A stretch of 25,668 bases of DNA from a virus. Lineage: Duplodnaviria > Caudoviricetes. The notes under the pieces are model-generated. The model was not told where the DNA came from. It saw nothing but the letters and a program-made list of their open reading frames with translations, and searched no databases. Shown in pieces: positions 1 through 17,842 of the stretch. A program made the position numbers and the translations under genes. Positions within the stretch are counted from its first letter, which is position 1, and each line of letters opens with the position of its first letter. The DNA is taken from positions 1-25,668 of IMG/VR virus record IMGVR_UViG_3300012667_000220; one strand, 5' to 3'.

Positions 1-18
1 CTCCCACACCGACAGCCT

Positions 19-46
19 TTGCCCTAACGTCTTAGGGCTATACAAT
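19..46 (+). promoter_or_regulatory. Sigma-A-like promoter with an inverted repeat overlapping -35 and spacer
   Basis: TTGCCC(19-24)-16 nt-TACAAT(41-46), the same 16-nt spacing as other promoters here; perfect inverted repeat GCCCTAA-cgtc-TTAGGGC at 21-38. Confidence 0.6.
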
Positions 47-50
47 GCTC

Positions 51-292
51 ACACCTCACGATGTGGCGAGTCTCATGGAGACTAATAAGGGTAAGTTAGT
101 GCCCTTATCGTGCCGGCTCAAGGTGCGACCTTGATGTCTCGATAATGAGATGGTTTCATCCCGCCGGCTGTTGTTCGAAGGTGAAGAAGCCCACCAGCCT
201 ACCCCTCAACGCGAGCCGAGAGGCTAACGCGGAGTCTCCTTAGGTACCTTCACTCTATGTAAAGGGTTCGGTGAGGCTGAAAGCGAACTCAG
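51..292 (+). ncRNA. Candidate large structured ncRNA, family unknown
   Basis: Region without a convincing ORF, downstream of a promoter, almost fully tiled by nested helices (69-83, 85-108, 112-117/163-168, 118-134, 135-152, 173-177/284-288, 188-195/270-278, 197-201/241-245, 205-234 with a GAGA tetraloop); most G-U wobbles favour the + strand. Confidence 0.6.
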
Positions 293-450
293 GAGAGGAT
301 ATTACTGAGAACGATTGTCATTGTGACGGCGACGGAGCCTAGTGCGAGTCCTAGCCAGAACGAGGTCTTTTCGAAGCCTCTGGTGGCTCTCAGGCCGTCT
401 TCTAGGCCGTTCTCATAGCCTTCTAGGTAGTCTTCTGTGTGGTAGGTCAT
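289..450 (-). CDS. Small membrane protein, 53 aa (not in ORF track)
   Basis: Hand translation MTYHTEDYLEGYENGLEDGLRATRGFEKTSFWLGLALGSVAVTMTIVLSNILS; ATGA overlap with the upstream stop at 447-450; C-terminal hydrophobic helix. Confidence 0.75.
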   Translation of the reverse strand: MTYHTEDYLEGYENGLEDGLRATRGFEKTSFWLGLALGSVAVTMTIVLSNILS

Positions 451-728
451 AGGTCTAGCCCTTTCAAGTCTGTTGGTACTGGGACGTCTACTGGGAAGCC
501 TCGGAGATAGTCTCTGATTGCTTCAGTGGCTTGGTCGTAGGAGAGGCGGTCATATTGGTCACGTCGTTCTGGGTCTATCAGTGCGCTACGGGTTAGGAGA
601 TAAATGCGATATGCCCGTTTAGTGTCGTCTGGCTCGTTCATGACTGAGTGGACTCGGTTAGCTGGGAGTTCCCCTAGGAAGAGGGCGTCAGCTTCAAAGT
701 GTTCAGTTCTGATGTGAACGAGTTTCAT
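447..728 (-). CDS. Hypothetical protein, 93 aa
   Basis: ORF 447..809 trimmed to the ATG at 728 (ATGA overlap with the upstream stop). Confidence 0.7.
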   Translation of the reverse strand: MKLVHIRTEHFEADALFLGELPANRVHSVMNEPDDTKRAYRIYLLTRSALIDPERRDQYDRLSYDQATEAIRDYLRGFPVDVPVPTDLKGLDL

Positions 729-916
729 GAGTAGTCCCAATTCAGTGAGACGGCGTAAAGAAAGGACCCTAGCCAGATGTCGAGGTGTCGTGAGGTGTCT
801 GTGCGCCACAGTTGGAAGCCGAAAGTCCGATATTTGGAGAGGTAACGCTTCCTCGCACAGCGATACTTTCTGAATAGCCAGTAGTAGCGTCGTCTTTCTT
901 TCATCACTGCTCCCAT
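725..916 (-). CDS. Hypothetical basic/aromatic protein
   Basis: Fills the gap and is translationally coupled to the next gene; may start at ATG 904 behind GGAG. Confidence 0.6.
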   Translation of the reverse strand: MGAVMKERRRYYWLFRKYRCARKRYLSKYRTFGFQLWRTDTSRHLDIWLGSFLYAVSLNWDYS

Positions 917-919
917 CGC

Positions 920-953
920 GTCAGAACTATACCTGTAACGGTATAGTTTTGAC
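920..953. repeat. 14-bp inverted repeat (operator or hairpin)
   Basis: GTCAGAACTATACC-tgtaac-GGTATAGTTTTGAC, one mismatch, fills nearly the whole intergenic gap. Confidence 0.7.
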
Positions 954-1301
954 TCATTCTGTTTCCCAGCTTCGATAAGGATTTAGAGTGTGGTCAACCG
1001 GCTCAAAAGTGGCATCCTCAACACCAGCATCGTGGCCCTCTTGCCAAGCTTTCGCTTTCAAAGCCCTAGCCCTGTAGGAGAGCCCGTTTTCTGTGAAGAA
1101 GTCTGCGACTGCTAGTTTCTTTGTTTCGTCAAGCCAGCGGTCGAACTCGGCGTCAGCTTGAGCCTCGTCAATCAGCTCGAACCTGTTGTCACCAATCTTG
1201 ATTAGTCGGCTCTGATATACGTCGCGGACTTCTTCTGTTGTAGGTGTGTAATGCCTTGTAGAGCCGTCACTAACAGTGTTACTGCCTGAAATATCAGTCA
1301 T
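954..1301 (-). CDS. Hypothetical phage protein
   Basis: 115-aa ORF with GGAG upstream; YTPTTEEVR...AEFDRWL and AWQEG...NPY motifs resemble small actinophage proteins. Confidence 0.75.
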   Translation of the reverse strand: MTDISGSNTVSDGSTRHYTPTTEEVRDVYQSRLIKIGDNRFELIDEAQADAEFDRWLDETKKLAVADFFTENGLSYRARALKAKAWQEGHDAGVEDATFEPVDHTLNPYRSWETE

Positions 1302-1470
1302 TATCGTCTCCCTCAGCGTCTAGAACAGCCTGAGTCGCGGCCCAACGCTTCGGATAATCCTTCTTATCCCACCGATTCACCCGTGACCCGTCCTTCATCA
1401 CAGCGATACTCCAGCCGTCATACACGCCTCGAAGCTCGACAAGGTAGGCGACGTTTTCGCGGTCAATCAC
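1294..1470 (-). CDS. Hypothetical protein
   Basis: ORF 1294..1491, probable GTG start at 1470; contains GVYDGWS...NRW. Confidence 0.65.
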   Translation of the reverse strand: MIDRENVAYLVELRGVYDGWSIAVMKDGSRVNRWDKKDYPKRWAATQAVLDAEGDDND

Positions 1471-1816
1471 GCTCAAGCCTCTGAATCTCACGCTCGATGA
1501 ACTCGATAGCTTTTGTTAGCGCGTCAATCTCTTCGCTCATGTCAGCGATGACTCCCACGAGGGTCGAGATAGCTTCTGATTTTACGTCGGCAACGATTCC
1601 AGACAGAGCAGACTGTACGGATGCGTCATCTCGGTTCTTGGAGCGAAGTTCTCGGTCGTGGTCGTCTAGGAAGTCCCACGCGAGCTCTGTGACAGCGTCC
1701 TGAGTCGTTCCATACACTCGGACCGGGTACAGCATCCCTTCAGGGGTGAACTCGGCGTAATGGCTCTTCCCTGACGGATGGTCTGTAGTGCCGAACTTGA
1801 TGGTCGGGAGGGTCAC
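1463..1816 (-). CDS. Hypothetical protein with C-terminal coiled coil
   Basis: ORF 1463..1873 trimmed to GTG 1816 (GTGA overlap). Confidence 0.7.
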   Translation of the reverse strand: MTLPTIKFGTTDHPSGKSHYAEFTPEGMLYPVRVYGTTQDAVTELAWDFLDDHDRELRSKNRDDASVQSALSGIVADVKSEAISTLVGVIADMSEEIDALTKAIEFIEREIQRLERD

Positions 1817-2004
1817 TTTGTTTTCTCGATTTCTTTGATAGCCCATGCGATGACGGAGCACTCGGTACAGCAATCTCCCCCACAGTCTTGGTCTCTGAGG
1901 ATGGTTAGGACGCGGGTGCGTTCAGCTTGGACTCCTTTAGTAAAGGCGTCTCTTTTGAGGATGTTCAAGGTCTCTCCTGTCGTGACGATTTCGTCTGGAA
2001 TCAC
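1813..2004 (-). CDS. Small Cys-rich hypothetical protein
   Basis: 63 aa, GTGA overlaps at both ends, CGGDCCTEC cluster. Confidence 0.7.
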   Translation of the reverse strand: MIPDEIVTTGETLNILKRDAFTKGVQAERTRVLTILRDQDCGGDCCTECSVIAWAIKEIEKTK

Positions 2005-2168
2005 GAGGTCTTCTTGGCTGGGCGTCGCCCGTCGAGGATGTCTCGGATGCGTGCCTCTTCGATGTTCTTGTCCGCTTCTTTGCGGTGTTCAAGATAGTCG
2101 GTATTGAAACGCTCGGATTCAATCTTGCCAAGGTACTCGTTAATCTGTTGTGCGGCTGTTAGTGCCAT
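2001..2168 (-). CDS. Hypothetical protein, 55 aa (not in ORF track)
   Basis: Hand translation MALTAAQQINEYLGKIESERFNTDYLEHRKEADKNIEEARIRDILDGRRPAKKTS; GGAGG upstream; stop overlaps the next start. Confidence 0.75.
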   Translation of the reverse strand: MALTAAQQINEYLGKIESERFNTDYLEHRKEADKNIEEARIRDILDGRRPAKKTS

Positions 2169-2172
2169 GTTC

Positions 2173-2847
2173 TTATCCCTCCAAAAGCGAGAAGTCGAAT
2201 GTCTGATTTGCTAGGCGTGAAGCGATGATTTCACAGTATTTCTCCTCTAACTCTACGCCTACGGCTTTCCTTCCGAGGTTTCGAGCGGCTAGGAGTGTCG
2301 AGCCTGACCCTGCAAAGGGGTCTGCGATGGTTCCCTCAGGACACCGGTCTATGAGGAGCTCCATCAGTCCGACGGGTTTAGGCGTCGGGTGTCCTATCTT
2401 GGCGACCTCGATGGAGCGGGCTTCTTTTGTCTCGATGACTGACCTCATAGGGGGAGAGGTCTTCTTGAATCCTGTTCCGAGGACGTAGATTTCTTCGTGC
2501 TGGACCATGAACGGGGCTGTCAGCGGTCCGGGGGCCTGTCCACGCTTCCACCAGATGAGGAGGTGTTGCGTGTTGGCTGGGCGGGGCTTTTTCCATGAGC
2601 CGAAGACTATGGCTGGCTTGTCTCCCCATGCTTGAAGAGCTGAGTCGCGGATTCCGATGTTCTCGTCGTTCGCAATCCCATCCTTCCACTTGGAGGAGCT
2701 CCCTTCTCCGTCGTAGTTGCTCGTCCCTTTCCATGCGATGCCATAGGGAGGGTCTGTGACGAGAGCGTCAGCTTCTAGCCATGCGGTTTCTGTTAGACAG
2801 TCGCCAAGGTAGAGGGTGACGTAGTCGTCTTTGTAGTAGAGGCTCAC
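2173..2847 (-). CDS. DNA N6-adenine/N4-cytosine methyltransferase (beta class)
   Basis: Catalytic TDPPY motif precedes HPTPKP and the SAM-binding DPFAGSGST motif. Confidence 0.93.
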   Translation of the reverse strand: MSLYYKDDYVTLYLGDCLTETAWLEADALVTDPPYGIAWKGTSNYDGEGSSSKWKDGIANDENIGIRDSALQAWGDKPAIVFGSWKKPRPANTQHLLIWWKRGQAPGPLTAPFMVQHEEIYVLGTGFKKTSPPMRSVIETKEARSIEVAKIGHPTPKPVGLMELLIDRCPEGTIADPFAGSGSTLLAARNLGRKAVGVELEEKYCEIIASRLANQTFDFSLLEG

Positions 2848-3026
2848 GCTGAGGCTTTCTGAAAGTCGAATAGTTGGTAGAGGTCTTTTCGTCCGGCTCT
2901 CCAGAGTGCCTTGTAGAGTGCGCCGGGGCTTTTGTTGAGCGCGGTCGGGATGTAGTAGGGGCTCATCCCGTTATCGAGGAGCCAGACTGTCTCTTCGACG
3001 ATTTCTTCACGAGTCAAGTCGCTCAC
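2844..3026 (-). CDS. Small HTH-like protein
   Basis: 60 aa, coupled at both ends; GMSPYYIPTALNKSPGALYKALWRAGR resembles a helix-turn-helix. Confidence 0.65.
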   Translation of the reverse strand: MSDLTREEIVEETVWLLDNGMSPYYIPTALNKSPGALYKALWRAGRKDLYQLFDFQKASA

Positions 3027-3313
3027 TTTGACACCTGCCAGACCTTAGCGAAGCGTCCTGAGGGTAGTTTGACCTCTAGGCCAGTAGCGGAGACGAAGCC
3101 TTCACGGACAAGCTCTGCTCTCCGGCTCCGTATGCCACTCTCAGAGGCTCTTGGAGCTCCCTTGAGGTTTCCATACGCTTCGACGAGTTCGACGTCTGTA
3201 CGGGCTCTCACGAGACACTTCAAAATGTAGTGTTTGGTCAGGCTGATGTCCTTGACGGACTTCGCGGCGTCGTGTGAGGTCTGTGGGTCTGTTTTGCGGG
3301 CTTTAGCGGTCAC
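3023..3313 (-). CDS. Winged-helix DNA-binding protein
   Basis: ARKTDPQTSHDAA...SGIRSRRAELVREG...SGRFAKVW, a phage HTH-type pattern; GAGGAG RBS before GTG 3313. Confidence 0.8.
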   Translation of the reverse strand: MTAKARKTDPQTSHDAAKSVKDISLTKHYILKCLVRARTDVELVEAYGNLKGAPRASESGIRSRRAELVREGFVSATGLEVKLPSGRFAKVWQVSK

Positions 3314-3431
3314 GGTTCTTCTCCTCAAATGGAAGGGTGATTGTGTAGTGCTCTGGGTCGAAGGGGCAGAAGACTTCTCCGGGTGGAAGGTCTTTGCGGC
3401 AAGTCATACAGCGGTCATACGTCGGAGCCAT
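3303..3431 (-). CDS. Small Zn-finger-like protein, 42 aa
   Basis: ATG 3431 behind GGAGG; CxxC...C..H (MAPTYDRCMTCRKDLPPGEVFCPFDPEH). Confidence 0.6.
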   Translation of the reverse strand: MAPTYDRCMTCRKDLPPGEVFCPFDPEHYTITLPFEEKNRDR

Positions 3432-3433
3432 GC

Positions 3434-3562
3434 TTAGCCTCCCTGTATGGCCCACAGGGCGACGATGAACAGTTGTAGGGCTACTGCGAAGGATGCGAGC
3501 AGAGCTGTCCAGAAGACGAAGCGGACGGCGGTGCGGACTCGGTAGTAGTTGCGTGACTTCAT
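3434..3562 (-). CDS. Small membrane protein, 42 aa (not in ORF track)
   Basis: Hand translation MKSRNYYRVRTAVRFVFWTALLASFAVALQLFIVALWAIQGG; TAATG overlap with the upstream stop. Confidence 0.7.
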   Translation of the reverse strand: MKSRNYYRVRTAVRFVFWTALLASFAVALQLFIVALWAIQGG

Positions 3563-3777
3563 TACTTCCCCGCAATCAGGATGACGGTCAGGATAGTCAG
3601 GAGTGCGATGTTGACACCGACGAGGATGTTTGCGATGCGGACAAGGTGAGGCTCGATTCGGTAGGTGTAGCGAACCCCGGGAGGGAACGTGGAGAAGAGG
3701 TCAGACTGGACTTCTGCCTTCGTCTGATTCCACGCTGTCGATGACACTTGCTGGACGTCGATTTCTATGTAGCTCAT
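3562..3777 (-). CDS. Small protein with C-terminal TM helix
   Basis: ATG 3777 after a purine-rich leader; hydrophobic ILVGVNIALLTILTVILIA. Confidence 0.7.
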   Translation of the reverse strand: MSYIEIDVQQVSSTAWNQTKAEVQSDLFSTFPPGVRYTYRIEPHLVRIANILVGVNIALLTILTVILIAGK

Positions 3778-3793
3778 TTCTCTCTCTTCTCTC

Positions 3794-4336
3794 TTATGCG
3801 GCTTTGACACGGGATAGCTGGGTGGACTTGCGGCCTTCGTAGTCGTCGAACGACTTGACGGTTCCGCGAACGGTGATTCGGTCTCCCTTTTCAGCGGACC
3901 AAGCCCAGCCGGCGGTCGTGAATGCTTTGACCTCGTGTTCGAAGTCGACGCGGATGATGACGAGGAGCGAAGTGCCGAACTGGGTCTCGACGGTGCGGAT
4001 GTAGGAGACGGTTCCGTCGAGTTCTACAGCGTCGCCGATGTTTGATTCGATGTATGCGCTGGAGCTGTTGGCGATGTCGCGCATAGCCTTGAGTTCTGCC
4101 TGACGCTCAATGTCGAAAGCGTGCTGAACGCGAATCTTCTCTCCCTCGATAGCGTCGCGCTTGGCCTTGCGGGCTTCGCGCTTCGCTTCCTCTTCTGGGG
4201 TGTAGACGCGAACGCGGACGACCTTTGCTCCGTTACATTTGAAGCAAACTCCGTCGAACGTGGAAGCGAACTCCATCATCACGCCACGGCCTGAGCACTT
4301 TGGACAGGTGACGGTCGTGTAGACCTTCTCAGCCAT
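3794..4336 (-). CDS. Zn-finger + OB-fold nucleic-acid-binding protein
   Basis: CPKCSGRG...CFKCNG, a charged helix, then an OB-like C-terminus (GDRITVRGTVK...YEGRKSTQLSRV). Confidence 0.75.
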   Translation of the reverse strand: MAEKVYTTVTCPKCSGRGVMMEFASTFDGVCFKCNGAKVVRVRVYTPEEEAKREARKAKRDAIEGEKIRVQHAFDIERQAELKAMRDIANSSSAYIESNIGDAVELDGTVSYIRTVETQFGTSLLVIIRVDFEHEVKAFTTAGWAWSAEKGDRITVRGTVKSFDDYEGRKSTQLSRVKAA

Positions 4337-4581
4337 TAGAGGAACACTCCGTACTGAGTAGCGACAGCCTTTGCGGCGTAGAAGCGAAGCTGAGCTGACT
4401 GGTAGATGTCTTTGAAATCTTCATTGTCACCGATGAGCTTACGAAGACGGTCGAGCTTACGCATTTCGTACTCAGCGGCCCAGAAGTCGTCAGAAGCTTT
4501 CTTTTCTGCGGCGTAGAACTCAGCCATCATCTCGTCAGTGACGTCCGATGTGTCGATGTTGTCGATGTCGATGTTGCTCAT
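4336..4581 (-). CDS. Acidic hypothetical protein
   Basis: 81 aa, first gene after a strong promoter; TAATG overlap downstream. Confidence 0.75.
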   Translation of the reverse strand: MSNIDIDNIDTSDVTDEMMAEFYAAEKKASDDFWAAEYEMRKLDRLRKLIGDNEDFKDIYQSAQLRFYAAKAVATQYGVFL

Positions 4582-4625
4582 GATTTCTTCTCTCTATTAG
4601 CGGGATGATTTACCCGGTATAAACA

Positions 4626-4653
4626 ACAATATCCCCAGAAGCTGAGATGTCAA
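4626..4653 (-). promoter_or_regulatory. Strong sigma-A-like promoter
   Basis: TTGACA(4653-4648)-16 nt-TATTGT(4631-4626) in an AT-rich intergenic gap. Confidence 0.75.
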
Positions 4654-4689
4654 CTTCCGAGGATAATGTTTTGTAACGGTTTGATAACG

Positions 4690-5106
4690 CTAAGTCACGA
4701 CAAGCGGGATATGTTCGAACTCCAGAATCGTCACGTCAGCTCCGGGAGGACGCCCGTCAGCGTAGAACTTCTCCGCTTCCCACCGGATTATTAGGCTGTC
4801 GTCGACGAGCAGATTTGAGTTAATGCTCAATCCGTCTCCGAGCGAGCGACACAGCTTGTCTAAGTCAGGAGCGACCGTGGGGAGCAGACGCTTCACCGAC
4901 GAAGGGCGAGGAAGAAAGAACTTCACCCGCACCTCCACCGACGTCGCGAAAGGCTCCACGTCTCCAAGGTCAGCGACAGCTTCAGCTACAGCGTTACGCC
5001 ACGGACCGACCTTCTTAGACGACTCGATGAATCGACCGTTCCCAATGTAACGCTTGCTCCCCTGAGGGGCAGGTTCGCCCACAATGGTCAGGTCGACTCG
5101 ACGCAT
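4690..5106 (-). CDS. rusA: RusA-like Holliday junction resolvase
   Basis: GEPAPQGSK...PDLDKLCRSLGDGL...DDSLI signature. Confidence 0.92.
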   Translation of the reverse strand: MRRVDLTIVGEPAPQGSKRYIGNGRFIESSKKVGPWRNAVAEAVADLGDVEPFATSVEVRVKFFLPRPSSVKRLLPTVAPDLDKLCRSLGDGLSINSNLLVDDSLIIRWEAEKFYADGRPPGADVTILEFEHIPLVVT

Positions 5107-5462
5107 TAGAACGGAGCGTCAGGGTCTACGGCTGGAGCGGCCCACGGCTCACCCTGCGCCTTCACGAACTTCGACAGTGCTGAAGCGTTAATGACGTTGT
5201 TGTAGTAAATCTTCCCGTCAGCCTTCTCGGTCTTCTTGGTTCGGAACGAGCCCTCGATGACGAGGAGGTCTCCCTCAGCGAACTGAGTCAAGTCAGCTCC
5301 TGCTCGGTCTACCCAGACGTCATAATAAGTGTTCGTCCCGTCCTGCTCCCAAGCTCCGGTCGTCTCGTTCTTGCGAGAGTGGCGTTCACCAATCTCGAAC
5401 AAGGTCGAAGTCCCGATTGACTTGATGGTGTTCAGGTATGCGGTCACTTTGATTTGTGCCAT
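5106..5462 (-). CDS. ssb: Single-stranded DNA-binding protein
   Basis: OB-fold pattern (TYYDVWV...EGDLLVIEG) and acidic C-terminal tail DPDAPF; ATG 5462. Confidence 0.88.
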   Translation of the reverse strand: MAQIKVTAYLNTIKSIGTSTLFEIGERHSRKNETTGAWEQDGTNTYYDVWVDRAGADLTQFAEGDLLVIEGSFRTKKTEKADGKIYYNNVINASALSKFVKAQGEPWAAPAVDPDAPF

Positions 5463-5477
5463 TTTGTTTTCTCTTTT

Positions 5478-5505
5478 CATGTAGAGGGCTGATGCCCTGT
5501 GTCAA
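5478..5505 (-). promoter_or_regulatory. Possible promoter for ssb-rusA
   Basis: TTGACA(5505-5500)-16 nt-TACATG, a non-canonical -10; short inverted repeat AGGGC-atca-GCCCT in the spacer. Confidence 0.4.
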
Positions 5506-5514
5506 TCCTACGGT

Positions 5515-6357
5515 TTACAGATTCCTCTGGGCTTCTTCCTCGGCGAGTCTCTTTGAGCAAGGGATACACCTCCACAGTGAGAGGCCGTGCTCACACTCGG
5601 GGGCTGAGGTGGCGTTCTCACGAGCAAGACGCATCTCTTCAGCCAGTTCACGAGACCGCTGGAGCTCCCGCTCACGAGCTACACGAGCCTTCTCCATCTC
5701 CAAGTCCGCAAGCTCCTCCTTAGAGCGTTCACGAGGCGCGTAGGGCTCGTTAGACCACCCTCCGGCCCTGAGCCAAGACGCAGGGTATGGAATGAACTGA
5801 CGAGGAGGAAGATTCGGGTCGTTAGCAAGTCGACGAGCACCGTTGAGGATGTCCTCTAGGCCGTTGTCTTTCACAGCCTTGACGAAAGCTTTCTTCGCGT
5901 TGAACTTGTCTACCTTCTTCGGATATATCTCCCAGAAAGATTCGAACTCATCCTCACCCGCAGGGTGGGGGATTACTTCTTTAATCTGTTCTTCTTTAGT
6001 AATGGTGTTCTTAGTGGCCTTGTTATCCGTCACCGGGTTTTCCGGCAACGGTGAATCCGCCACCGGCTCCGAAGTAGTCCAGACAGTCTCTGAGAAGCGA
6101 CCGTCGTCAGACCTTTCCTGAGTGCGTGACAAGTAGCCAGCATCCTCCAGCTCACTGATAGCACTTGCTATCAAATCACGCCCGCATCCGTTCGCCTCAG
6201 CGAGAGACCGGATTGAGACAGACCACCCGGGAGAGTGAGTCATGAGCTGAGCGAGCAAGCCCTTCGACTTGAGTGAGAGACGCTTATCTCTGAGCCATGC
6301 GTTCGGAATCTGAGTGAACTGGTCCTCGAACGTGTGACGGCTTCTGACAATCGGCAT
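5515..6357 (-). CDS. Phage replication initiator (HTH + replisome-organiser-like domain)
   Basis: FTQIPNAWLRDKRLSLKSKGLL HTH N-terminus; FESFWEIYPKKVDK...AF and FIPYPASWL motifs; ATG 6357 coupled to the HNH stop. Confidence 0.85.
   Translation of the reverse strand: MPIVRSRHTFEDQFTQIPNAWLRDKRLSLKSKGLLAQLMTHSPGWSVSIRSLAEANGCGRDLIASAISELEDAGYLSRTQERSDDGRFSETVWTTSEPVADSPLPENPVTDNKATKNTITKEEQIKEVIPHPAGEDEFESFWEIYPKKVDKFNAKKAFVKAVKDNGLEDILNGARRLANDPNLPPRQFIPYPASWLRAGGWSNEPYAPRERSKEELADLEMEKARVARERELQRSRELAEEMRLARENATSAPECEHGLSLWRCIPCSKRLAEEEAQRNL
6022..6066. repeat. Three tandem 15-bp imperfect repeats, putative iterons/origin
   Basis: Minus strand CCGGTGGCGGATTCA / CCGTTGCCGGAAAAC / CCGGTGACGGATAAC, next to an AT-rich tract at ~5971-6021. 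Confidence 0.6.
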
Positions 6358-6689
6358 TAGTCGTCCTTCCCTACTTCTTGAATCGTGTATTCGTCGTCTA
6401 TCAGGAACCAAGCTCCACGGTTCGGATACCAGACAGGCACGAGAGACGAGTCAGTGTTTGTTGACACCTTCCAGCCATACGTCCGGGCCAGCTCCGCCGT
6501 GTAAGCGTCAGACTCCATGAGGCCATTAATCAGCGAGCACATGGAGACGATGTTCGAAGGGACGTCACGCTTCTTCGACCCACCCATTCCGCGATTAGCT
6601 CGATGATGTGGGACAGCGGTCTCGACGTCGCCACAGTGGACACAGCCGCCGTCACGGTCGAGGAACTTCTTGAACTGTTTGACGTTCAT
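6357..6689 (-). CDS. HNH endonuclease-family protein
   Basis: RDGGCVHCG...HHRANRGMGGS...SNIVSMC; ATG 6689 (ATGA overlap). Confidence 0.85.
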   Translation of the reverse strand: MNVKQFKKFLDRDGGCVHCGDVETAVPHHRANRGMGGSKKRDVPSNIVSMCSLINGLMESDAYTAELARTYGWKVSTNTDSSLVPVWYPNRGAWFLIDDEYTIQEVGKDD

Positions 6690-7054
6690 CGCTCCCCCTG
6701 CCCAGCACTCTTCCACATGAGCTCCACGAGTCGCGCCTGAGTCTGGATAGACATTTGAGCGAGCTCTAGGTTCTTCATCTTGGTTCGGACTCTGTTGTAT
6801 TCAGCCTTAGAGATTGCCTCGTGAAGACGTTCCTTCTCAGCTCGAAGCTTTGCCCCAGCCTGACGGTCAACGACAGTCCCCTCCAGCGAGAGAAGAGCCA
6901 TAGCCTCAGCCTTCTCAGCGGCAAGAGTAGCCTCAGCATATTTGACCTCTGCCTCGTACTGAGCCTTCACTCCACGAGATGCTTCTGCCCGGACGTTCAC
7001 CAGTTCACGGATGATGACGTCAGGCGTTACGAGCTCACTCAACGGTCTCTCCAT
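6686..7054 (-). CDS. Helical/coiled-coil protein in the recombination operon
   Basis: 122-aa Ala/Glu/Lys-rich helical ORF; a recombination-mediator role is inferred from position only. Confidence 0.7.
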   Translation of the reverse strand: MERPLSELVTPDVIIRELVNVRAEASRGVKAQYEAEVKYAEATLAAEKAEAMALLSLEGTVVDRQAGAKLRAEKERLHEAISKAEYNRVRTKMKNLELAQMSIQTQARLVELMWKSAGQGER

Positions 7055-7202
7055 CTAGGACAGCGTTCAGCCTGTCAGCGATGCGCTTCTGTTCCTTCTT
7101 CAAGCCCGGAAGGCGAGCGTCATACTTTGACGTCTCCACAATGAGCTCAGTTATCTGGGCCAGCGAAGAGATGAGAATCTCACGCTTCACGAAGTCACTC
7201 AA
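7035..7202 (-). CDS. Hypothetical protein
   Basis: ORF 7035..7223, probable TTG start at 7202 behind GGGAG. Confidence 0.6.
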   Translation of the reverse strand: MSDFVKREILISSLAQITELIVETSKYDARLPGLKKEQKRIADRLNAVLDGETVE

Positions 7203-7764
7203 GGGTCGCTCCCTTAGCCTCAATCGCTGTCACGATGTCCTTAGACGCCTTCTTCTTAGTTGCCTCCGCCCAGAGAGCACGAGCTTCCTCCTTGGTCGTC
7301 AGAGCGTCGATTGCGACCTGCCAGTCAAGCCCAGCACTTGCCTCGTAAGAGAACGTGTCAGGGTCAGGCTCGTCCGTAGGGAGACACAGAAGCTGAAGGA
7401 GGAAGGTTCGGTAAGCGACAGACATGGCCTTAGCCGTTGCCTTGTCCCCAGAGTCGAACGCCTCCGCCGAGACAGCCCCGAGGATTGGTTCCCCAGTCTG
7501 ACCATGGACAGCGTAAGTCACTGTCACGCGAGCGATGTTCATGAGCGACCCCTTGGCTGTCGTAGCCGTGTCATAGGTGACAGAGTCGACCGCTGGCACG
7601 ATGAACCCTCCATGAGTTCGGAGTGCCGGGCCGACAGCGTTCATGACGGCGTCAATGCCTCGGAAGTCGAATCCAGTCCCGGTCGTGTTGCGTTCACGCT
7701 TAGCGAGACCTTGGACGTCAGTCATCACGTTACGGATGACCTCGGATGCGGTTAGCTGTGTCAT
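7195..7764 (-). CDS. erf: ERF-family ssDNA annealing protein
   Basis: FDFRGIDAVMNAVGPAL...EAFDSGDKATAKAMSVAYRTFLLQLLCLPTDEPDPD signature. Confidence 0.9.
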   Translation of the reverse strand: MTQLTASEVIRNVMTDVQGLAKRERNTTGTGFDFRGIDAVMNAVGPALRTHGGFIVPAVDSVTYDTATTAKGSLMNIARVTVTYAVHGQTGEPILGAVSAEAFDSGDKATAKAMSVAYRTFLLQLLCLPTDEPDPDTFSYEASAGLDWQVAIDALTTKEEARALWAEATKKKASKDIVTAIEAKGATLE

Positions 7765-7768
7765 GTTC

Positions 7769-8668
7769 TTAGCCTCTCTTAGCTACTAGGTAGGGGGTTC
7801 CGGTTCCGCGAGCCTGACGCGTCAAAGACCAACGGCCCTCGATTAGACCACGCTTAGCGGAGCCCATAGCGTCAAGGACGCGGGACTTCATCTCGTTCAT
7901 CTCTTGCTCGGCTTGCTTATATTTGACCTCAGCGAGCTGGTAGTAAACGCCAAGGTCGCCCAGCTCTACCTCGTCGTCTGAGATGTCTGGGTGGATTGCT
8001 CGGATTGTCGTGTAGGTCGACAGTGCTCCGTCGTAGTCAGGCTGGACGTCGTGGAGCATATGGTCGCGGAAGCGTTCAACGTCTACCAGTGCGGCGTCCT
8101 GAGCAAAGCGGGAAGCTTCGACAGGGAACTCTCGGTAACGGTTCCCGTGGAACAAGGCCACGACCCACGCCTTCGAGTAGCCGAAAGTCTGGAGATACCA
8201 TTGGACTTGTGTCATGTAGTGAGCAGGGACCCCGTCGCTCCAGTCGTCCTCATACTGAGCCGTCTTGACCTCGACGATGCCGAACTCTCCCTCATGCTCA
8301 AACAGAGCGTCAGGGTTTGCCAACTGCCAAGGACGGTCTGGGTGAGACCACGTTCCGACGTTACGGTGAAGCGTGAACTCTGGGTGAGTGTCCTCGAACT
8401 TATCGAGCACGACAGGCTCTAAACGGTTGCCCCACTCCATAGCCTCATTCGGCTGGACGTGTGCGTCGATGCGTCCGGTCTTCTTCGCCCACAAAGTGAA
8501 CGGAGACTCCCACTTGTTGAAGCCACAGATGGTCCCGACCTCTGAGCCACCGATACCGGTCGCTCGTAAATCGTGCCACTCCTGCGACCCGTTCTCGAAG
8601 TTACCCACGAGACGGGCTGATGTTTTGAATGAGCTGTCCGGCTGATTTGCTAGAGTTCTAGAAGTCAT
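7769..8668 (-). CDS. YqaJ/lambda-exonuclease-family (RecE-like) recombination exonuclease
   Basis: EWHDLRATGIGGSE, WGNRLEP, ANPD, EVKT and YMTQVQWYL motifs; ATG 8668 behind GAGGAG. Confidence 0.92.
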   Translation of the reverse strand: MTSRTLANQPDSSFKTSARLVGNFENGSQEWHDLRATGIGGSEVGTICGFNKWESPFTLWAKKTGRIDAHVQPNEAMEWGNRLEPVVLDKFEDTHPEFTLHRNVGTWSHPDRPWQLANPDALFEHEGEFGIVEVKTAQYEDDWSDGVPAHYMTQVQWYLQTFGYSKAWVVALFHGNRYREFPVEASRFAQDAALVDVERFRDHMLHDVQPDYDGALSTYTTIRAIHPDISDDEVELGDLGVYYQLAEVKYKQAEQEMNEMKSRVLDAMGSAKRGLIEGRWSLTRQARGTGTPYLVAKRG

Positions 8669-8695
8669 CGGTTCTCCTCTCTCTCCCGGCGACTG

Positions 8696-8739
8696 AAGCC
8701 CCCGGTCTAGTTCCCCCAACTAGGTCGGGGGCTTTTCTT
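8696..8739 (+). terminator. Strong hairpin with U-tract on the + strand
   Basis: AAGCCCCCGGTCTAGTT-cccc-CAACTAGGTCGGGGGCTT followed by TTCTT. Confidence 0.6.
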
Positions 8740-8756
8740 ATCTGGAATTAGTTCTG

Positions 8757-8778
8757 ACTATAGTCGAAGCTACAGACA
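8757..8778 (-). promoter_or_regulatory. PafBC/RecA-NDp-type promoter for the recombination-replication operon
   Basis: TGTCTG-tagcttcgac(10 nt)-TATAGT matches TGTCGG-N10-TA-N3-T with one mismatch. Confidence 0.6.
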
Positions 8779-8801
8779 TTCCCCTAATAGAGAGAGACGA
8801 A

Positions 8802-8996
8802 ATGTTGAAAATCAGTAGAGCAGGCGTAGACGTAATCTGCGACCACTGCGGACTCGAAGCAAGCCAAGCCACAGGACACCTACTAGAGACAGTCCAAGGA
8901 GCTCAGACCGTCGCCAAAGAACTCGGCCTCCACCTCGCCGAAGACGGAAAGACTCACGCCTGCGAGATTTGCCGAGTGACAGGAGCCAACTCATGA
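8802..8996 (+). CDS. Small Zn-ribbon protein
   Basis: CDHC...HACEIC; purine-rich leader; ATGA overlap with whiB. Confidence 0.75.
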   Translation: MLKISRAGVDVICDHCGLEASQATGHLLETVQGAQTVAKELGLHLAEDGKTHACEICRVTGANS

Positions 8997-9274
8997 GCGA
9001 CCTCTACCTTGAACTCATGGAAGCCAAAGATAAAGTCGGGGAGACTCCATGCGAGACAGACCCAGACCTGTTCTTCGCTGACCCAGAATCTTTCCACCAC
9101 CTGCGACAGGTCGCATACGCCGTCAGCATTTGCCGAGAGTGCCCAGTACGAGTCCAGTGTGGGACTTACGCTGTAGACGCCGGAGAAGAGTTCGGAGTCT
9201 GGGGAGGGCTAACCCCTAAGGAGCGGAAGTTAATCCGTCGTATGCCCCGCCCAAGGCTTCCTGAATCCGTGTGA
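8993..9274 (+). CDS. whiB: WhiB-family Fe-S transcription factor
   Basis: C...DPDLFF...CRECPVRVQC...GVWGGLT, with four Cys and the turn motif; ATG 8993. Confidence 0.95.
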   Translation: MSDLYLELMEAKDKVGETPCETDPDLFFADPESFHHLRQVAYAVSICRECPVRVQCGTYAVDAGEEFGVWGGLTPKERKLIRRMPRPRLPESV

Positions 9275-9809
9275 GAGCACGAGTCACGCGCTTCTTTACG
9301 CCACGGTCAGACATAGAGGTCAGAGTCCCGATTTCGTAATACGAAAGTCCGTCACGGAATCGGAGAGCAAGCACTGAACGAACCTCCTGAGGAAGACTCG
9401 CATACGCTCCACGGATGTCAGTCATCACAGCAACAGCTCGACCATAGTCACCAGAGAACCCGGAAGTCTTTTCGTGTTCGTGGACAGCGGTCTGAGGGGT
9501 CTCCTCCCACAGGAACGGAAGAGCACGCTCTATCTGTCCGAGAGAATAAGTTGCCCCAGCATCGAGACGAGCACCCGAGCGGGCCTGTTGCTCATGAGCG
9601 CAATATTTCGAAGCGACTCGGCGAAGAGTGACGAACAGCTTCGCGTCTCCACCTTCCTCGTTTCGGTAACGCTTCACAGTGTCCACGTTCTCAAACAGCC
9701 ACAGCGTCAGCTCCTGAGTCAAATCCTCAACCTCGACAGCGGACCACTTCGAGCCAATCTTCCAAGAGATGCGACGAGCAAGCGTCAGCTCTTTCTCTTC
9801 AATGCTCAA
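9216..9809 (-). CDS. ECF-like RNA polymerase sigma factor (sigma-70 regions 2 and 4)
   Basis: VEDLTQELTLW region-2-like segment; LPQEVRSVLALRFRDGLSYYEIG...VKKRVTRAL region-4 HTH. Confidence 0.82.
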   Translation of the reverse strand: MSIEEKELTLARRISWKIGSKWSAVEVEDLTQELTLWLFENVDTVKRYRNEEGGDAKLFVTLRRVASKYCAHEQQARSGARLDAGATYSLGQIERALPFLWEETPQTAVHEHEKTSGFSGDYGRAVAVMTDIRGAYASLPQEVRSVLALRFRDGLSYYEIGTLTSMSDRGVKKRVTRALTRIQEALGGAYDGLTSAP

Positions 9810-11077
9810 CGTGACAGCTCCTTAGAATCGACGGTCGTGCGTTCCCACGAGTAGGGAAGAATCATCTCAACAGCATCGGCACGAGTAATCGTCCCCTTCA
9901 TGACCACAGGGTCAGAGACGAGGCCAGCCGACTGAGAGAACCAAGACGAAGCGTCGCAAAGAGCCCCACCCTGAATCCACTGAGTGTCCCCGACGAGCTG
10001 TTGAAAGCGTGCGTGATGGTAATGGCCTGTGAAGAGGAGGTCTGAATCCCCGATAGGGTCACGAGTCGCCGCCATAGATTTGAACCAACCCAGAATCTTT
10101 CCCTCGACGCCTGTACCTCCACCTCGTGCGATGTGACCATGAGTGAGGCCGACAACGTGTCCGAGGATTTCTACGGTCAGAGAGAGGCGTTCACGGGCTG
10201 GGAAAGAGAACGTCACGTCTTTGATGCCAGCGAGCTGGAACGCTTCAGCAATCTGCTCCACGACCGCGACGTCATCATTGTCACCGAGGCTCGTGTAAGC
10301 CTTGCCGTTCTGACGGTTCTCGCCATGGTTCCCGGGAACGACTGCGACGTGAATCGGGAGGCCAGACTTGCGAAGCGTCAAAAGGAACTCGGTCAAGAGG
10401 CGACGGACGAGCTTCACTTGGTCACGACGGTCCAGCTCAACACTGAAAGTCTGTGTCTCATACCAGCCAGAAATCCCCTCAACAAGGTCTCCAGTCATAG
10501 GGACAAAGATTGACGTCGCTGGCTTCTTCATCAGGGCCAAGCCTTCAAGGTCTTCAAGAGCGAGCTCGCCAAGCTGAAGAGCCTTCTCGACCATGCCAGC
10601 CACTCCGTCGCCGTCAGCCTGCCCAGCCTGTAGGTCTGTGATTTGTAAGAAGTAGGCACGCTCCACGTCAGCCTTCTTCGCACGCTTGCCGGGAGTCGAA
10701 GCCTTTACGGCGGAGATGATGTCCTCAAGGTCAATCGTCTCTTCGAGGGGCTTGCGTCGAGTAATCCGGGCCTTGAAATAGTAGAGGCGAGTCACGTTCC
10801 CATCGCCTGCGTTAGCGTCCCACGCACGAACCTCGACCGAGTCGCCGACGACAGCGAACTGAGAGGCGTCGATGCCGGGAGGAAGAAGCTCAGCTAAGAC
10901 TGAATCCCAATCCTCAGGAGCATCTCCACGAGGGTCAGTGACGACGTATCCGCCGTCCTTGCTTATCTGAACACCGGGAGTCCAGCCGGTCGGGTGAGAG
11001 TGCTTTCGACCATGGCGCACTTCTGTCGCGTGGCCTTCGGTCCCGACCTTGAGAAGTCGGTCTAGTGGAGAAGTCAA
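9806..11077 (-). CDS. Calcineurin-like metallophosphoesterase (Mre11/SbcD-like)
   Basis: TDLQ, GDLVEG, GNHG, HGH and GHYH motifs; probable TTG start at 11077 (TTGA overlap, GAAAGG RBS). Confidence 0.88.
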   Translation of the reverse strand: MTSPLDRLLKVGTEGHATEVRHGRKHSHPTGWTPGVQISKDGGYVVTDPRGDAPEDWDSVLAELLPPGIDASQFAVVGDSVEVRAWDANAGDGNVTRLYYFKARITRRKPLEETIDLEDIISAVKASTPGKRAKKADVERAYFLQITDLQAGQADGDGVAGMVEKALQLGELALEDLEGLALMKKPATSIFVPMTGDLVEGISGWYETQTFSVELDRRDQVKLVRRLLTEFLLTLRKSGLPIHVAVVPGNHGENRQNGKAYTSLGDNDDVAVVEQIAEAFQLAGIKDVTFSFPARERLSLTVEILGHVVGLTHGHIARGGGTGVEGKILGWFKSMAATRDPIGDSDLLFTGHYHHARFQQLVGDTQWIQGGALCDASSWFSQSAGLVSDPVVMKGTITRADAVEMILPYSWERTTVDSKELSR

Positions 11078-11307
11078 TGGTTCGCCTTTCGTAGGCACGA
11101 ACAGGAACGCTTCCTGTGTCGAGCGACGGCTGAAGAAGAGCTACGAAGTCCAGCCTCGGTCATGATTCTGAACACCTCGTCCGAGCTCTCCCCACCCTTC
11201 GAGTATGGGGTGTCAATCAGGGCCTTCAGGGCCGGCTTGTAAGTGTCAGGAACTTCCAGCAAGGCGCGACCGATTACGCACACGGGCGCACGTTCTGAAC
11301 TGTCCAT
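11074..11307 (-). CDS. Small HTH/Zn-binding protein coupled to the phosphoesterase
   Basis: CVIG...AVARHRKRSCSC; probably a leaderless start. Confidence 0.75.
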   Translation of the reverse strand: MDSSERAPVCVIGRALLEVPDTYKPALKALIDTPYSKGGESSDEVFRIMTEAGLRSSSSAVARHRKRSCSCLRKANH

Positions 11308-11313
11308 AGATTA

Positions 11314-11335
11314 AGGGTAGCTGGGACGGTGGACA
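11314..11335 (-). promoter_or_regulatory. PafBC/RecA-NDp-type promoter, leaderless transcript
   Basis: TGTCCA-ccgtcccagc(10 nt)-TACCCT, then 6 nt to the ATG at 11307; no RBS. Confidence 0.5.
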
Positions 11336-11369
11336 GTCGAGCCGGTCATAGCCCCGGGCGTGTCTGAAT

Positions 11370-11411
11370 AACAAAGAGCCCCACCTCCCGCCGATAGGAA
11401 GATGGGGCTCT
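11370..11411 (-). terminator. Intrinsic terminator
   Basis: AGAGCCCCATCTTCC-loop-GGGAGGTGGGGCTCT followed by TTGTT. Confidence 0.75.
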
Positions 11412-11423
11412 GAGAGCTGTGGG

Positions 11424-11864
11424 CTATTTGACCGTGACGGTCGCCCGGATGATGTGCTCACGGTATCCGCGAGCCGCCTTCTTGGCGAGCTCGAAGTCAG
11501 CGTGCCACGACGCCTTCTCCCAGATGAAGGTCCCAGCGGGGACAGACTCCAGAGCCTTGAGCTCCTTCTGGGCACGCTTGGCCTCGGGGAGGAGACGGCT
11601 GAGCTTGACCTCAGTTTGGTCAGCGAGCCACTCAGCGCGAGCCTCAGGAGTCCACGCAGAAGTCCGCTCGTCACCCTCAAGGAAAGCCTCAAGGCGAGAG
11701 GATACGCGCTCAGGGTTAGCCGAGTCGATAGTGCGCTGGAGCCCCGCACGAATGGCCTCAATCTTGCGCCCAGCAACGAGCACAGCGAACTCGTACTTGT
11801 AGCCGTTAGTGGTGCGAGTGAGGGTCTGACCGTTGACCTCTACGGTGTGGAGGAAGTAAGACAT
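11424..11864 (-). CDS. Accessory hypothetical protein (monocistronic cassette)
   Basis: 146 aa with AGGAG RBS, its own promoter and a terminator. Confidence 0.8.
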   Translation of the reverse strand: MSYFLHTVEVNGQTLTRTTNGYKYEFAVLVAGRKIEAIRAGLQRTIDSANPERVSSRLEAFLEGDERTSAWTPEARAEWLADQTEVKLSRLLPEAKRAQKELKALESVPAGTFIWEKASWHADFELAKKAARGYREHIIRATVTVK

Positions 11865-11877
11865 TTGGGGCTCCTAG

Positions 11878-11968
11878 CTCGGCGGGCCTTTCCCGCTCGG
11901 TAGGGTTCCAGAATACACGGAACCGGAGAAAAAGCAAACACATATTCAAGGCAAAGAAAAAGCCCCTC
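11878..11968 (-). repeat. Promoter-cassette repeat, copy 1
   Basis: Terminator tail, GAATATGTGT, TTGCTT(11937-32)-16-TATTCT(11915-10), then leader hairpin CCGAGCGGG-aaagg-CCCGCCGAG; 20-bp identity with copy 2. Confidence 0.85.
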
Positions 11969-11989
11969 ACCTTCTCAGGCAAGGGGCTT
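11953..11989 (-). terminator. Intrinsic terminator
   Basis: AAGCCCCT...AGGGGCTT followed by TTTCTTT. Confidence 0.8.
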
Positions 11990-11999
11990 CTCCCGGGGG

Positions 12000-12197
12000 T
12001 CACTTTCCGTTAGCTACGGCGTAGTCATCAGCCGCGAAGTATGCGGGCTCAAGAGACTTGACAGCGCGAAGAGCGCGACGGTCGATGTCGTCGATGCCAC
12101 AGCCTCCGCCTTCGTAGGATGCCTCGAAGATGTTGAGAGCCCAGACGAGATTCCGTGCCTGAGTGGGGGTCAGTTCGATTGTGAGTTTCTTAGCCAT
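12000..12197 (-). CDS. Accessory hypothetical protein
   Basis: 65 aa with GAGGA RBS. Confidence 0.75.
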   Translation of the reverse strand: MAKKLTIELTPTQARNLVWALNIFEASYEGGGCGIDDIDRRALRAVKSLEPAYFAADDYAVANGK

Positions 12198-12223
12198 GGT
12201 CTTATTCCTCCTAGGAGCCCGCT

Positions 12224-12583
12224 TTAGCGGACTCCCTCCTCTGCGAGCTTCTCGTCAATGCGGGCGACCCAAGTCTTGAGGACTTCGATGTCCTTGCCGA
12301 GGCAACGCTGGCAGACAGCTTCGAAGGGGACACGTCCGTCTGTGATTTCACGGATGGTCTCAGCGAGCACCTTGAGCCCGAGGTTCTGGATGAGGTCGCG
12401 CTCTTCGTCGCTCTGAGCGTTCCAGTTCTGACCGCCCTCGATTTCAACGACAGTCTCGTTTACTGCGAAAGCACCGGTGCGGTAGTGACCGACGCACTTC
12501 TGGATTCCGTAGCGAGGGTGAAGAAGGTGAAGCTTCTGATTGCGGATAAGTCCTGCGGTGAGCTTTACGGTGGTCATTTTCAT
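12224..12583 (-). CDS. Accessory hypothetical protein
   Basis: 119 aa with AAGGA RBS; H...C...CQRC possible metal ligands. Confidence 0.78.
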   Translation of the reverse strand: MKMTTVKLTAGLIRNQKLHLLHPRYGIQKCVGHYRTGAFAVNETVVEIEGGQNWNAQSDEERDLIQNLGLKVLAETIREITDGRVPFEAVCQRCLGKDIEVLKTWVARIDEKLAEEGVR

Positions 12584-12592
12584 TTTCCTTGT

Positions 12593-12684
12593 CTCGGCGG
12601 GAACGTCCCGCTCGGCTTATATGTCAATGATACACAGAACCTAACAAAAAGCAAACACATATTCACCCAAAAGAAAAGCCCCTC
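12593..12684 (-). repeat. Promoter-cassette repeat, copy 2
   Basis: TTGCTT(12654-49)-16-TATCAT(12632-27); leader hairpin CCGAGCGGGA-cgt-TCCCGCCGAG. Confidence 0.85.
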
Positions 12685-12710
12685 CCGAACCCGAAGGAAC
12701 GAGAGGGGCT
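12669..12710 (-). terminator. Intrinsic terminator ending the structural/lysis operon
   Basis: AGCCCCTCTCG...CGGGAGGGGCT followed by TTTCTTTT. Confidence 0.85.
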
Positions 12711-12718
12711 GAACCTAC

Positions 12719-12805
12719 CTACTGACAGGAGTCACACTGAAGGAAGTCCATTGGGTCGACGGGAACTGCTATCCCACCGATGATGTCTTGAGGGTCGTTA
12801 TCCAT
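12719..12805 (-). CDS. 28-aa acidic peptide with C-terminal CxxC (not in ORF track)
   Basis: MDNDPQDIIGGIAVPVDPMDFLQCDSCQ; AGGAG RBS 6 nt upstream; stop lies just before the terminator. Confidence 0.75.
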   Translation of the reverse strand: MDNDPQDIIGGIAVPVDPMDFLQCDSCQ

Positions 12806-12814
12806 AAGGAGCTC

Positions 12815-13102
12815 CTACTTGATTTTCACGATGCTACCGGGACGAACCGGTGCGCCGTTGTTGAGGGAAAATAATGTCTTAGCAAACTCGCGACCACTAA
12901 CACCCTTAGGAGCGTTAGTCTCACCGAGCGAAGCATACGAGTCGCCGTCCTTAGCAATCACGGCCCCGTCAAGACCATCAGCGAATCCCGGCTTCTTAGC
13001 ATCCGGGCTCTTAGCCATAGCCTTCTCGTTAGCCGGCTTGAGAGGAACGCCCTCAACGTCGACAGGCTGATTCTCTACGAGTTCTTCTTCTAACTTAGCC
13101 AC
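12815..13102 (-). CDS. LysM-like domain protein
   Basis: GTG 13102 behind AAGGAG; VIAKDGDSYASLG...LFSLNNGAPVRPGSIVKI resembles LysM. Confidence 0.65.
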   Translation of the reverse strand: MAKLEEELVENQPVDVEGVPLKPANEKAMAKSPDAKKPGFADGLDGAVIAKDGDSYASLGETNAPKGVSGREFAKTLFSLNNGAPVRPGSIVKIK

Positions 13103-13112
13103 ACGAGGCTCC

Positions 13113-13370
13113 TTACTGATTGACGAAAATCCGGTCAAGGATTCCGAGGATGATAGCCGACACAGAGGCGACGATAGCGATGACCGTCATCCAGTGGACC
13201 TTAGGTCCCTGACGTTCCTTGAGTAGAGCAATCTCAGTCTCAAGCTCGCTAATCTTTTTCCAGTGACGGTCAGTGGTGGACTCAAGCCTGTCAAGCTTGT
13301 CGTTCATGGCCTTCACCATTTCTTCAATGCGGCCTATAGCAACGAGGACCTCTACGTTCGAATCGCTCAC
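13113..13370 (-). CDS. Coiled-coil + C-terminal TM protein (probably lysis-associated)
   Basis: Heptad-rich N-terminus and a WMTVIAIVASVSAIILGIL helix. Confidence 0.75.
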   Translation of the reverse strand: MSDSNVEVLVAIGRIEEMVKAMNDKLDRLESTTDRHWKKISELETEIALLKERQGPKVHWMTVIAIVASVSAIILGILDRIFVNQ

Positions 13371-14431: not shown

Positions 14432-14441
14432 TGACTACCCC

Positions 14442-15164: not shown

Positions 15165-15457
15165 TAGTTTTCCTTCGTGGTGATGTTAGCCATGGCGAGA
15201 GAAGAGAACGCTGGGCCGAGAGCTGTATAGGCTCCAGTCGCAAACATGAACCACTCAGGAGCGAGAGCACCAGTAGCCGTCAAGCCACCCATGAAGCCGA
15301 TGATAGCCAGACCGGTGATGCCGTAGATAGCCCAAACAATCTTCCGGGCCTTGTTGTTCGTGATGATGGAGCCAAGGTCAGCGGGCTTGAGCTGTGAAGC
15401 TAGAGCTACCTGTCGGGCGTTAATCTCAGCGATTTCTTGTTCATTTAGTTTTGCCAC
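15164..15457 (-). CDS. Putative holin from an internal in-frame start, 97 aa
   Basis: AAGGAG(15469-64)-6 nt-GTG(15457), in frame and just after the Pro linker. Confidence 0.55.
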   Translation of the reverse strand: MAKLNEQEIAEINARQVALASQLKPADLGSIITNNKARKIVWAIYGITGLAIIGFMGGLTATGALAPEWFMFATGAYTALGPAFSSLAMANITTKEN

Positions 15458-16237: not shown

Positions 16238-16269
16238 GTCGGCTCCTTCTGTGAAAGCGGGCTTGAAAA

Positions 16270-17840: not shown

Positions 17841-17842
17841 GA

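Follow-up and report, generated by a model that had tools for sequence, protein, structure and literature searches.

The window, by which we mean the whole 25,668-nt stretch of DNA that was analysed, is one linear virus record with a completeness of 73% (CheckV). Its recognisable genes lie on the minus strand: head–tail connectors, tail and lysis genes, followed by genes for recombination and replication. Close relatives of the major tail protein are numerous (796 at E ≤ 1e-20) and, because these include proteins from Aurantimicrobium (a prophage of A. minutum, 65% identity), Frigoribacterium and Curtobacterium, the host of the phage is probably a member of the Microbacteriaceae. DNA pieces that are near-identical to the window occur in freshwater, wetland and lake runs. 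One DNA contig (run X19) omits 590 bases of the window (11411–12002), so the ORFs there are taken to be an accessory insertion in some relatives. A gene-free stretch comes right after the last ORF of the early module, which matched no PHROG and no Pfam family. The features discussed below are as follows.

289..450, minus strand: last ORF of the early module, 53 amino acids; its stop codon abuts the upstream promoter-like block
280..288, minus strand: upstream block GTTCGCTTT, family consensus GTWTACTTT, putative -35 region
259..266, minus strand: downstream block CCCTTTAC, consensus CCYTYTAC, predicted -10 region
177..251, minus strand: conserved ∼75-nt structured RNA with predicted start G251; 20 members
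236..251, minus strand: closing stem P1, 5' strand (GAAGGU 251–246 and AAGGAG 241–236), pairing with 189–177
205..234, minus strand: near-invariant CUCC and GUUGAG with the variable terminal stem P3 (230–211); covariation
190..205, minus strand: asymmetric internal loop whose 3' side carries four G-runs, GGGG-UA-GG-CU-GG-U-GGG; candidate two-tier G-quadruplex
177..189, minus strand: closing stem P1, 3' strand (CUUCUU 189–184 and ACCUUC 182–177)
112..168, minus strand: junction specific to the window and closed by GCCGGC/GCCGGC, where 11 of 19 homologues have a tmRNA tRNA-like domain
21..108, no strand assigned: four further window-specific hairpins (85–108, 69–83, about 54–66 and 21–38)
19..46, plus strand: proposed sigma70-like promoter, probably a chance match
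9216..9809, minus strand: ECF-like sigma factor, 197 amino acids, candidate reader of the promoter (phrog_354, E = 1e-15; Pfam Sigma70_r4_2, E = 7e-10)

The region at about 177–288 is a real conserved structured element that recurs in related phages of actinobacterial type. Exact-pattern scans built from the window alone gave only chance matches (65 and at least 119 viral loci, and 88 metagenome loci), locus searches with the 120-aa gene or the SSB protein alone gave no relatives, and a locus search with RecE gave two loci, both without the element. Against GenBank phages, blastn gave no match for the window and only chance matches for the homologue at locus L417; a blastn-type search of 50 related records gave only short matches. 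Related phages were fetched via the tail protein (80 viral and seven genome loci), and nhmmer over those 87 loci gave three weak matches, each ∼8 kb upstream of the tail gene. Iteration with 20 further stretches led to nine homologues, with no matches in reversed decoys, and two consensus patterns run over the viral collection (15 and nine loci) gave nine more members. L415 and L420 matched the G-run pattern and were dropped as non-members; neither has a covariance-model match. A covariance model built from 18 sequences (R1) scored L427, which was outside the seed, at 70 bits and found the divergent member L448 at 29.5 bits, while over 527 kb of other DNA it returned nothing below E = 0.4. The family has 20 members including the window, with pairwise identities of 41–71% (median 56%).

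R1 matches ten of the 50 related records (nine of the ten being seed members) and seven of the 12 that are at least 90% complete; the element is present once per record and in none of the seven proviruses. Filtered searches run without a positive control found no counterpart in 141 family-level, 151 phylum-level and 13 genus-level host genomes. A first-look filter likewise left no candidates in two Streptomyces phages whose sigma homologues are distant, one Propionibacterium phage and one Gordonia phage. In the window and in each of the first nine homologues, an ORF on the gene-sense strand precedes the element, and downstream of it there is an HNH gene in 15 of the 19 homologues and a small terminase gene (terS) in 11, some loci ending earlier. 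Its place across the family is behind the last early gene and ahead of HNH and the small terminase where the DNA reaches that far. In one locus (L386, record G037) two tandem small ORFs, both beginning MPNPKGINQYSKG, lie between the element and HNH, 168–553 nt past the motif start. As the original prediction for this region had supposed, the class lies outside the catalogued RNA families. In the window no Rfam 15 family reached its gathering score, and at E ≤ 10 there were just chance snoRNA matches outside the region; the loci of 18 of the 19 homologues matched only at neighbouring tRNA, tmRNA and DUF3800-IX RNAs, and one further homologue searched alone at E ≤ 10 gave only a chance miRNA match. 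A conserved small ORF does not explain the region either, since element lengths occur in all three frames (18 members).

The RNA spans 64–93 nt across members, and two of its helices, the closing stem P1 and the terminal stem P3 with its base, covary in 18–20 related sequences, which bears out the expectation that homologues would show covariation. In an alignment-free test with 20 members, the 5' strand of P1 gives a duplex of −10.3 kcal/mol with its cognate tail and one of −5.9 kcal/mol with the tails of other members (permutation p = 5e-5), a kind of test that kinship among members can inflate; in an 18-member version the cognate pairing is at the top of its row in only 7/18. P1 begins at base 1 in 12 of the 20 members and, with base 2 also counted, in 14, and its sequence and length vary freely between members. 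For P3 and its base we used a MAFFT alignment of 18 sequences that was not fitted to the structure (A4): 96.5% of the cells are paired, there are 20 double changes and none of 500 shuffles scores as high. Independently, RNAalifold with 12 members found double changes at eight of the 14 pairs of the terminal stem and base; it favours another register, in which the first G-run (GGGG) pairs with CUCC (GRCUCC). The helix at 210–213 pairs with 228–231.

Four G-runs with G-free linkers of 1–4, 1–2 and 1 nt are present in 20/20 members, most of which were found with patterns containing part of this motif. The sequence pattern of a G-quadruplex (four runs of at least two G with short loops) likewise occurs in all 20, partly imposed by the search patterns, and a quadruplex appears in the predicted minimum free-energy structure of seven of the 20; that of the window has none. 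The G-run loop could form a two-tier RNA G-quadruplex, a possibility that we take seriously while placing it well short of even odds; the varying linker length fits it better than pairing to a fixed target.

The 40 bases in front of the RNA are conserved in a different manner and contain the two blocks, at a fixed gapless spacing with a variable spacer between them. The upstream block has at least six of nine matches in 14/20 members at a fixed distance and is gapless in A4 except in L422; the downstream block has at least seven of eight in 17/20, a count that is partly circular as this block was the anchor. A pyrimidine–purine step follows 7 nt past the -10 block in 18/20, and a weight-matrix scan of the window gave a best site of 17.8, with the next at 7.5. 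The blocks are poor in L422, L412 and L427; in L422 (∼3070–3110) the RNA is kept, the upstream DNA is AT-rich with no promoter blocks and there is no HNH gene nearby. From these patterns, the blocks at 280–288 and 259–266 are likely to be the single late promoter of the phage, with transcription predicted to start at G251. We consider it very probable that the anatomy of the element is as described here, promoter-like blocks followed by a ∼75-nt RNA fold.

The predicted fold depends on where the transcript begins. When 45 upstream bases are added, the mean number of predicted P1 pairs falls from 9.0 to 1.9 and more than half are lost in 15/20 members, mostly through pairing of the G-runs with the C-rich promoter sequence. 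This promoter–G-run pairing is mostly not above what composition gives (mean z = −0.95; below −1.65 in 6/20), so a start-dependent misfolding switch may be incidental, and neither strand shows covariation for it (p = 0.80 and 0.77). No U-tract terminator was found within up to 400 nt of the element in any of the 20 members. Actinobacterial terminators often have no U-tract, and the argument from the absence of a terminator is weakened by this.

One run labelled as RNA-Seq and flagged as probably DNA (X17) has a single 235-nt contig at 62–296, with one difference from the window, and no further long near-identical piece in 1–20000; the DNA runs X18 and X19 have scattered pieces. The contig reaches 45 nt upstream of the predicted start at 251. 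The run was selected using window positions 1–3000, and because the contig comes from one study and contigs carry neither strand nor ends, it was weighed neither for nor against expression.

The model of the ECF-like sigma factor has a pLDDT of 78, and all of the Foldseek matches listed are sigma factors or RNA polymerase complexes; it resembles ECF and sigma-28 factors, weakly by E-value (best only 1.4e-3). Its gene is present in 16 of 33 records, in nine of ten element-bearing records and in none of the seven proviruses; as sigma factor and element share ancestry, this co-occurrence is not independent evidence. Seven sigma-bearing records have no element match; they are fragments or contigs ending in early-type genes, and of the three inspected G008 begins at the HNH gene with the junction absent and G047 and G002 end in early-type genes. 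At E ≤ 1e-5 the GenBank phage relatives of the sigma factor are only 29 Streptomyces phage records and two unclassified ones, at 23–29% identity. In one phage, WRightOn (NC_048684), the sigma homologue is at 35535–36218 and there is a large tRNA cluster with no element match.

What follows the element differs between members and can be a tmRNA-like RNA, a tRNA, HNH or small ORFs, so the element is not tied to one gene; in L301 and L448 it runs directly into the start of HNH. In 11 of the 19 homologues (L381, L284, L378, L353, L278, L414, L416, L417, L424, L426 and L427) the next feature is a tmRNA reduced to its tRNA-like domain (TLD), with no coding part, beginning 9–29 nt past the last G-run. 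These RNAs have a 7-bp acceptor stem with a G3–U pair, a T-arm and no mRNA-like domain. They are ∼78–117 nt long, those of L378 and L424 being the longer ones (∼98 and ∼117 nt). Eight were called by script (7/7 acceptor pairs, G3–U), that of L284 by Rfam and sequence, and those of L378 and L424 by eye. The Rfam tmRNA model scores three of the 11 (47.0, 46.6 and 27.3 bits), and ARAGORN called none in three scanned loci that hold one (L278, L284 and L353). Two further RNAs were noted in these loci: a DUF3800-IX RNA above the gathering score just past the TLD-only tmRNA (L416, 3124–3189, plus strand) and an extra tRNA-like sequence with a T-loop after tRNA-Lys, uncalled by ARAGORN and Rfam (L284, ∼1950–2030, plus strand).

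In the window the corresponding slot holds the junction at 112–168 (stretch 109–171, z = −4.52 on the minus strand against −2.50 on the plus strand). No homologue of it was found, ARAGORN and Rfam each gave no call and the script found no TLD. It was rejected as a tmRNA or tRNA: the acceptor-like stem has 6 bp with no wobble and no G3–U, and there is no T-loop consensus. The stretch with the four further hairpins (17–110) has z = −5.15 on the minus strand and −3.43 on the plus strand; as no homologue was found for the hairpins at 21–108, they have no covariation data.

The element is most likely transcribed from the minus (gene-sense) strand, a choice that follows from the orientation of the adjacent tmRNA-like and tRNA genes in homologues, the promoter signature, the wobble pairs (six G–U against no A–C on the minus strand in the unfitted alignment), the closing-stem pairs (191 on the sense strand against 157 on the antisense strand) and the z-scores of the window. 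In the family as a whole, just 10/20 members have their lower z on the sense strand, so folding energy does not decide the strand there. The original prediction had been an RNA of ∼240 nt on the plus strand, read from a TTGCCC-16-TACAAT promoter of its own, and we now regard this as very improbable. The region is indeed structured: the sequences of the plus-strand helices are all in place and most of the stems pair fully, but it is chiefly the minus strand that folds. Compared with dinucleotide shuffles, the region does fold better than expected, at z = −1.37 (plus) and −3.76 (minus) for 50–295 and −2.18 and −5.21 for 17–251; the 118-nt stretch 54–171 has z = −4.91 on the minus strand, below all 85 minus-strand background stretches (lowest −3.46; lowest on the plus strand −4.23). 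That plus-strand minimum, at 901, coincides with a 14-bp hairpin between two ORFs (920–953) that is terminator-like on the plus strand.

The promoter match on the plus strand does exist, but it is at chance level (two found, 1.4 expected in 3 kb) and is not conserved: no homologue has a 9/12 antisense match, and 8/12 matches in 5/19 lie at scattered distances. Conservation covers only ∼177–288 (at most 173–290) and not the full ∼240 nt, and the tmRNA-like and tRNA neighbours in homologues are on the opposite, gene-sense strand. The nested second domain does not hold up, as its outer helices are the mirror image of the promoter–G-run pairing, which has no covariation; the outer helix GTTCG/CGAAC has a mean pair probability of 0.12 in the plus-strand ensemble, where the alternative CCTCAC/GTGAGG pairing has 0.46. 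The claim that wobble pairs and a GNRA loop work only on the plus strand is true of the helices at 85–108, 135–152 and 197–245 and of the loop at 218–221, which reads GAGA; in the unfitted alignment of the family it is the minus strand that carries the G–U pairs. An antisense RNA specific to the window may exist on the plus strand.

The reading that we prefer, with a probability of about 0.4, is that the element is a late promoter whose first ∼75 nt of RNA act in cis, in the manner of put, for elongation through the late operon. The phage sigma factor would recognise the two blocks and start transcription at G251; the RNA would then pair its first bases with its own 3' tail and leave the G-rich loop exposed. 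Early transcripts that read through would misfold, their G-runs being taken up by the C-rich promoter sequence; under this proposal only transcripts from the late promoter would carry the active fold. The exposed loop would bind the polymerase or a partner and suppress termination, which is the least supported step. The cis role is preferred because the element heads the predicted late transcript in every case, is independent of its cargo, stands before untranslated RNA and a long operon, and has no U-tract terminator behind it. A more elaborate form, in which a G-quadruplex within a duplex, folding only from the sigma-dependent late promoter, makes the polymerase resistant to termination while the tmRNA fragments of the same small non-coding operon disable ribosome rescue, is a long shot; the element would then be a late antiterminator that works without protein and has a structure of a new class.

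Given a shape closed at its ends and a boundary of the RNase P type, it is nearly as likely as cis action that the same promoter and RNA act in trans. The RNA would be cut free on its 3' side, by RNase P in those loci that have a tRNA-like RNA next, and would accumulate as a stable decoy whose G-rich loop binds a host protein or RNA; the tmRNA fragments alongside may titrate SmpB. RNase P cleaves at the 5' ends of tRNA-like RNAs, and P1, which joins base 1 to the tail, ends within a few bases of the TLD in 11/19 homologues, giving the end-closed rod that is typical of stable RNAs that stand alone. According to the available part of PMC4131195, phage DS6A has a TLD-only tmRNA, and a molecule much like it acts as an inhibitor of tmRNA. 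Against a trans decoy, nine of the 20 members including the window have no recognisable processing site, and the filtered searches of host genomes gave no counterpart. The two specific forms of the idea of an RNA polymerase decoy or sponge that were tried, a 6S-like RNA and a sponge for the host 6C RNA, were not supported. For the sponge, the conserved 9-mer was permuted in 252 ways, of which 79–105 pair equally well, and the cofolding gain is close to that of shuffled loops (−1.0 against −0.9 kcal/mol); a 6S-like arm architecture was dropped once covariation marked the upstream arm as promoter-like, and the 6S and Ms1 models fail. Three Microbacteriaceae genomes (L436–L438) have 6C-like RNAs, two of them below the Rfam cut-off, and no 6S or Ms1 match.

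It is unlikely that the RNA merely hides its 5' triphosphate from nucleases and insulates the folding of the tRNA-like RNAs downstream. A protector of this kind would suit a P1 that starts from base 1 or 2 in most members while its sequence and length are free to vary, but it leaves the near-invariance of CUCC, GUUGAG and the G-runs at a median identity of 56% unexplained. Less likely still is a signal in the DNA (an activator site, a packaging or replication signal or an R-loop-forming G-tract) whose inverted repeats merely mimic RNA structure. The site is the early/late junction near HNH and terminase, and Watson–Crick covariation is strand-symmetric (the antisense p is also 5e-5), both of which would fit such a signal; the wobble pairs on one strand (six G–U against no A–C) and a long-range stem that starts exactly at the pyrimidine–purine step behind the promoter-like blocks and ends at the tmRNA-like RNAs argue for RNA.

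On present sequence comparisons the element appears to be an RNA family new to Rfam 15, and its proposed role is of a known kind. We found no published description of it in the accessible literature; in the catalogue likeliest to contain one, that of PMC10690425, a motif search covered tabulated rows without sequences and gave no match. In the literature that we found, little is said on how a single late promoter is kept transcribing ∼20 kb in actinobacterial phages. Should the quadruplex form, a conserved loop of four G-runs flanked by two helices would be out of the ordinary among natural folds; should the element be only a 5' stabiliser, its significance would be modest. Being small and well defined, with a promoter and a sigma factor predicted for it, the element lends itself to in vitro tests with no need for a cultured phage. 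TLD-only tmRNAs are now seen in 11 related phages; the available portions of PMC4131195 and PMC11915505 name DS6A alone.

Among known RNAs, 6S RNA (RF00013, a rod of ∼180 nt) and Ms1 (RF02566, ∼300 nt) are likewise end-closed rods with an internal loop, although neither model matches the element, which is half their length or less and has a one-sided G-rich loop. The internal loop of 6S RNA is a two-sided bubble. The TLD-only tmRNA of DS6A has the same build as the RNA behind the element in 11/19 homologues, as far as the available parts of PMC4131195 and PMC11915505 describe it; this comparison concerns the cargo and not the element, and the window has no such RNA. The position of the element can be likened to that of the highly expressed non-coding RNAs at the genome ends of the actinophages D29, Kampy and WC1 (PMC10986025, in part), and lambdoid phages likewise have a short non-coding RNA at the late promoter (PMC7547250, in part). 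Unlike these RNAs, the element has no U-tract terminator behind it, and the end stretches of D29 (1–2500 and 45000–49127) have no match to it. By sequence it is no homologue of put: R1 found nothing in the whole HK022 record and, with filters off, a single 7.2-bit match (E = 3.5) in 9 kb. The closest parallel is one of arrangement. In the accessible part of PMC9378689, the put RNAs of HK022 are ∼70 nt long, putL comes immediately after its promoter, and activity needs no tether to the transcript; like putL and putR, the element is a phage-encoded RNA of about this length that would act protein-free right behind the promoter (here a predicted one) of a long operon. As described there, put consists of two tandem stem-loops at early promoters of an enterobacterial phage, whereas the element, at a predicted late promoter of phages of actinobacterial type, has the predicted fold of a single rod closed at its ends and bearing a G-rich loop.
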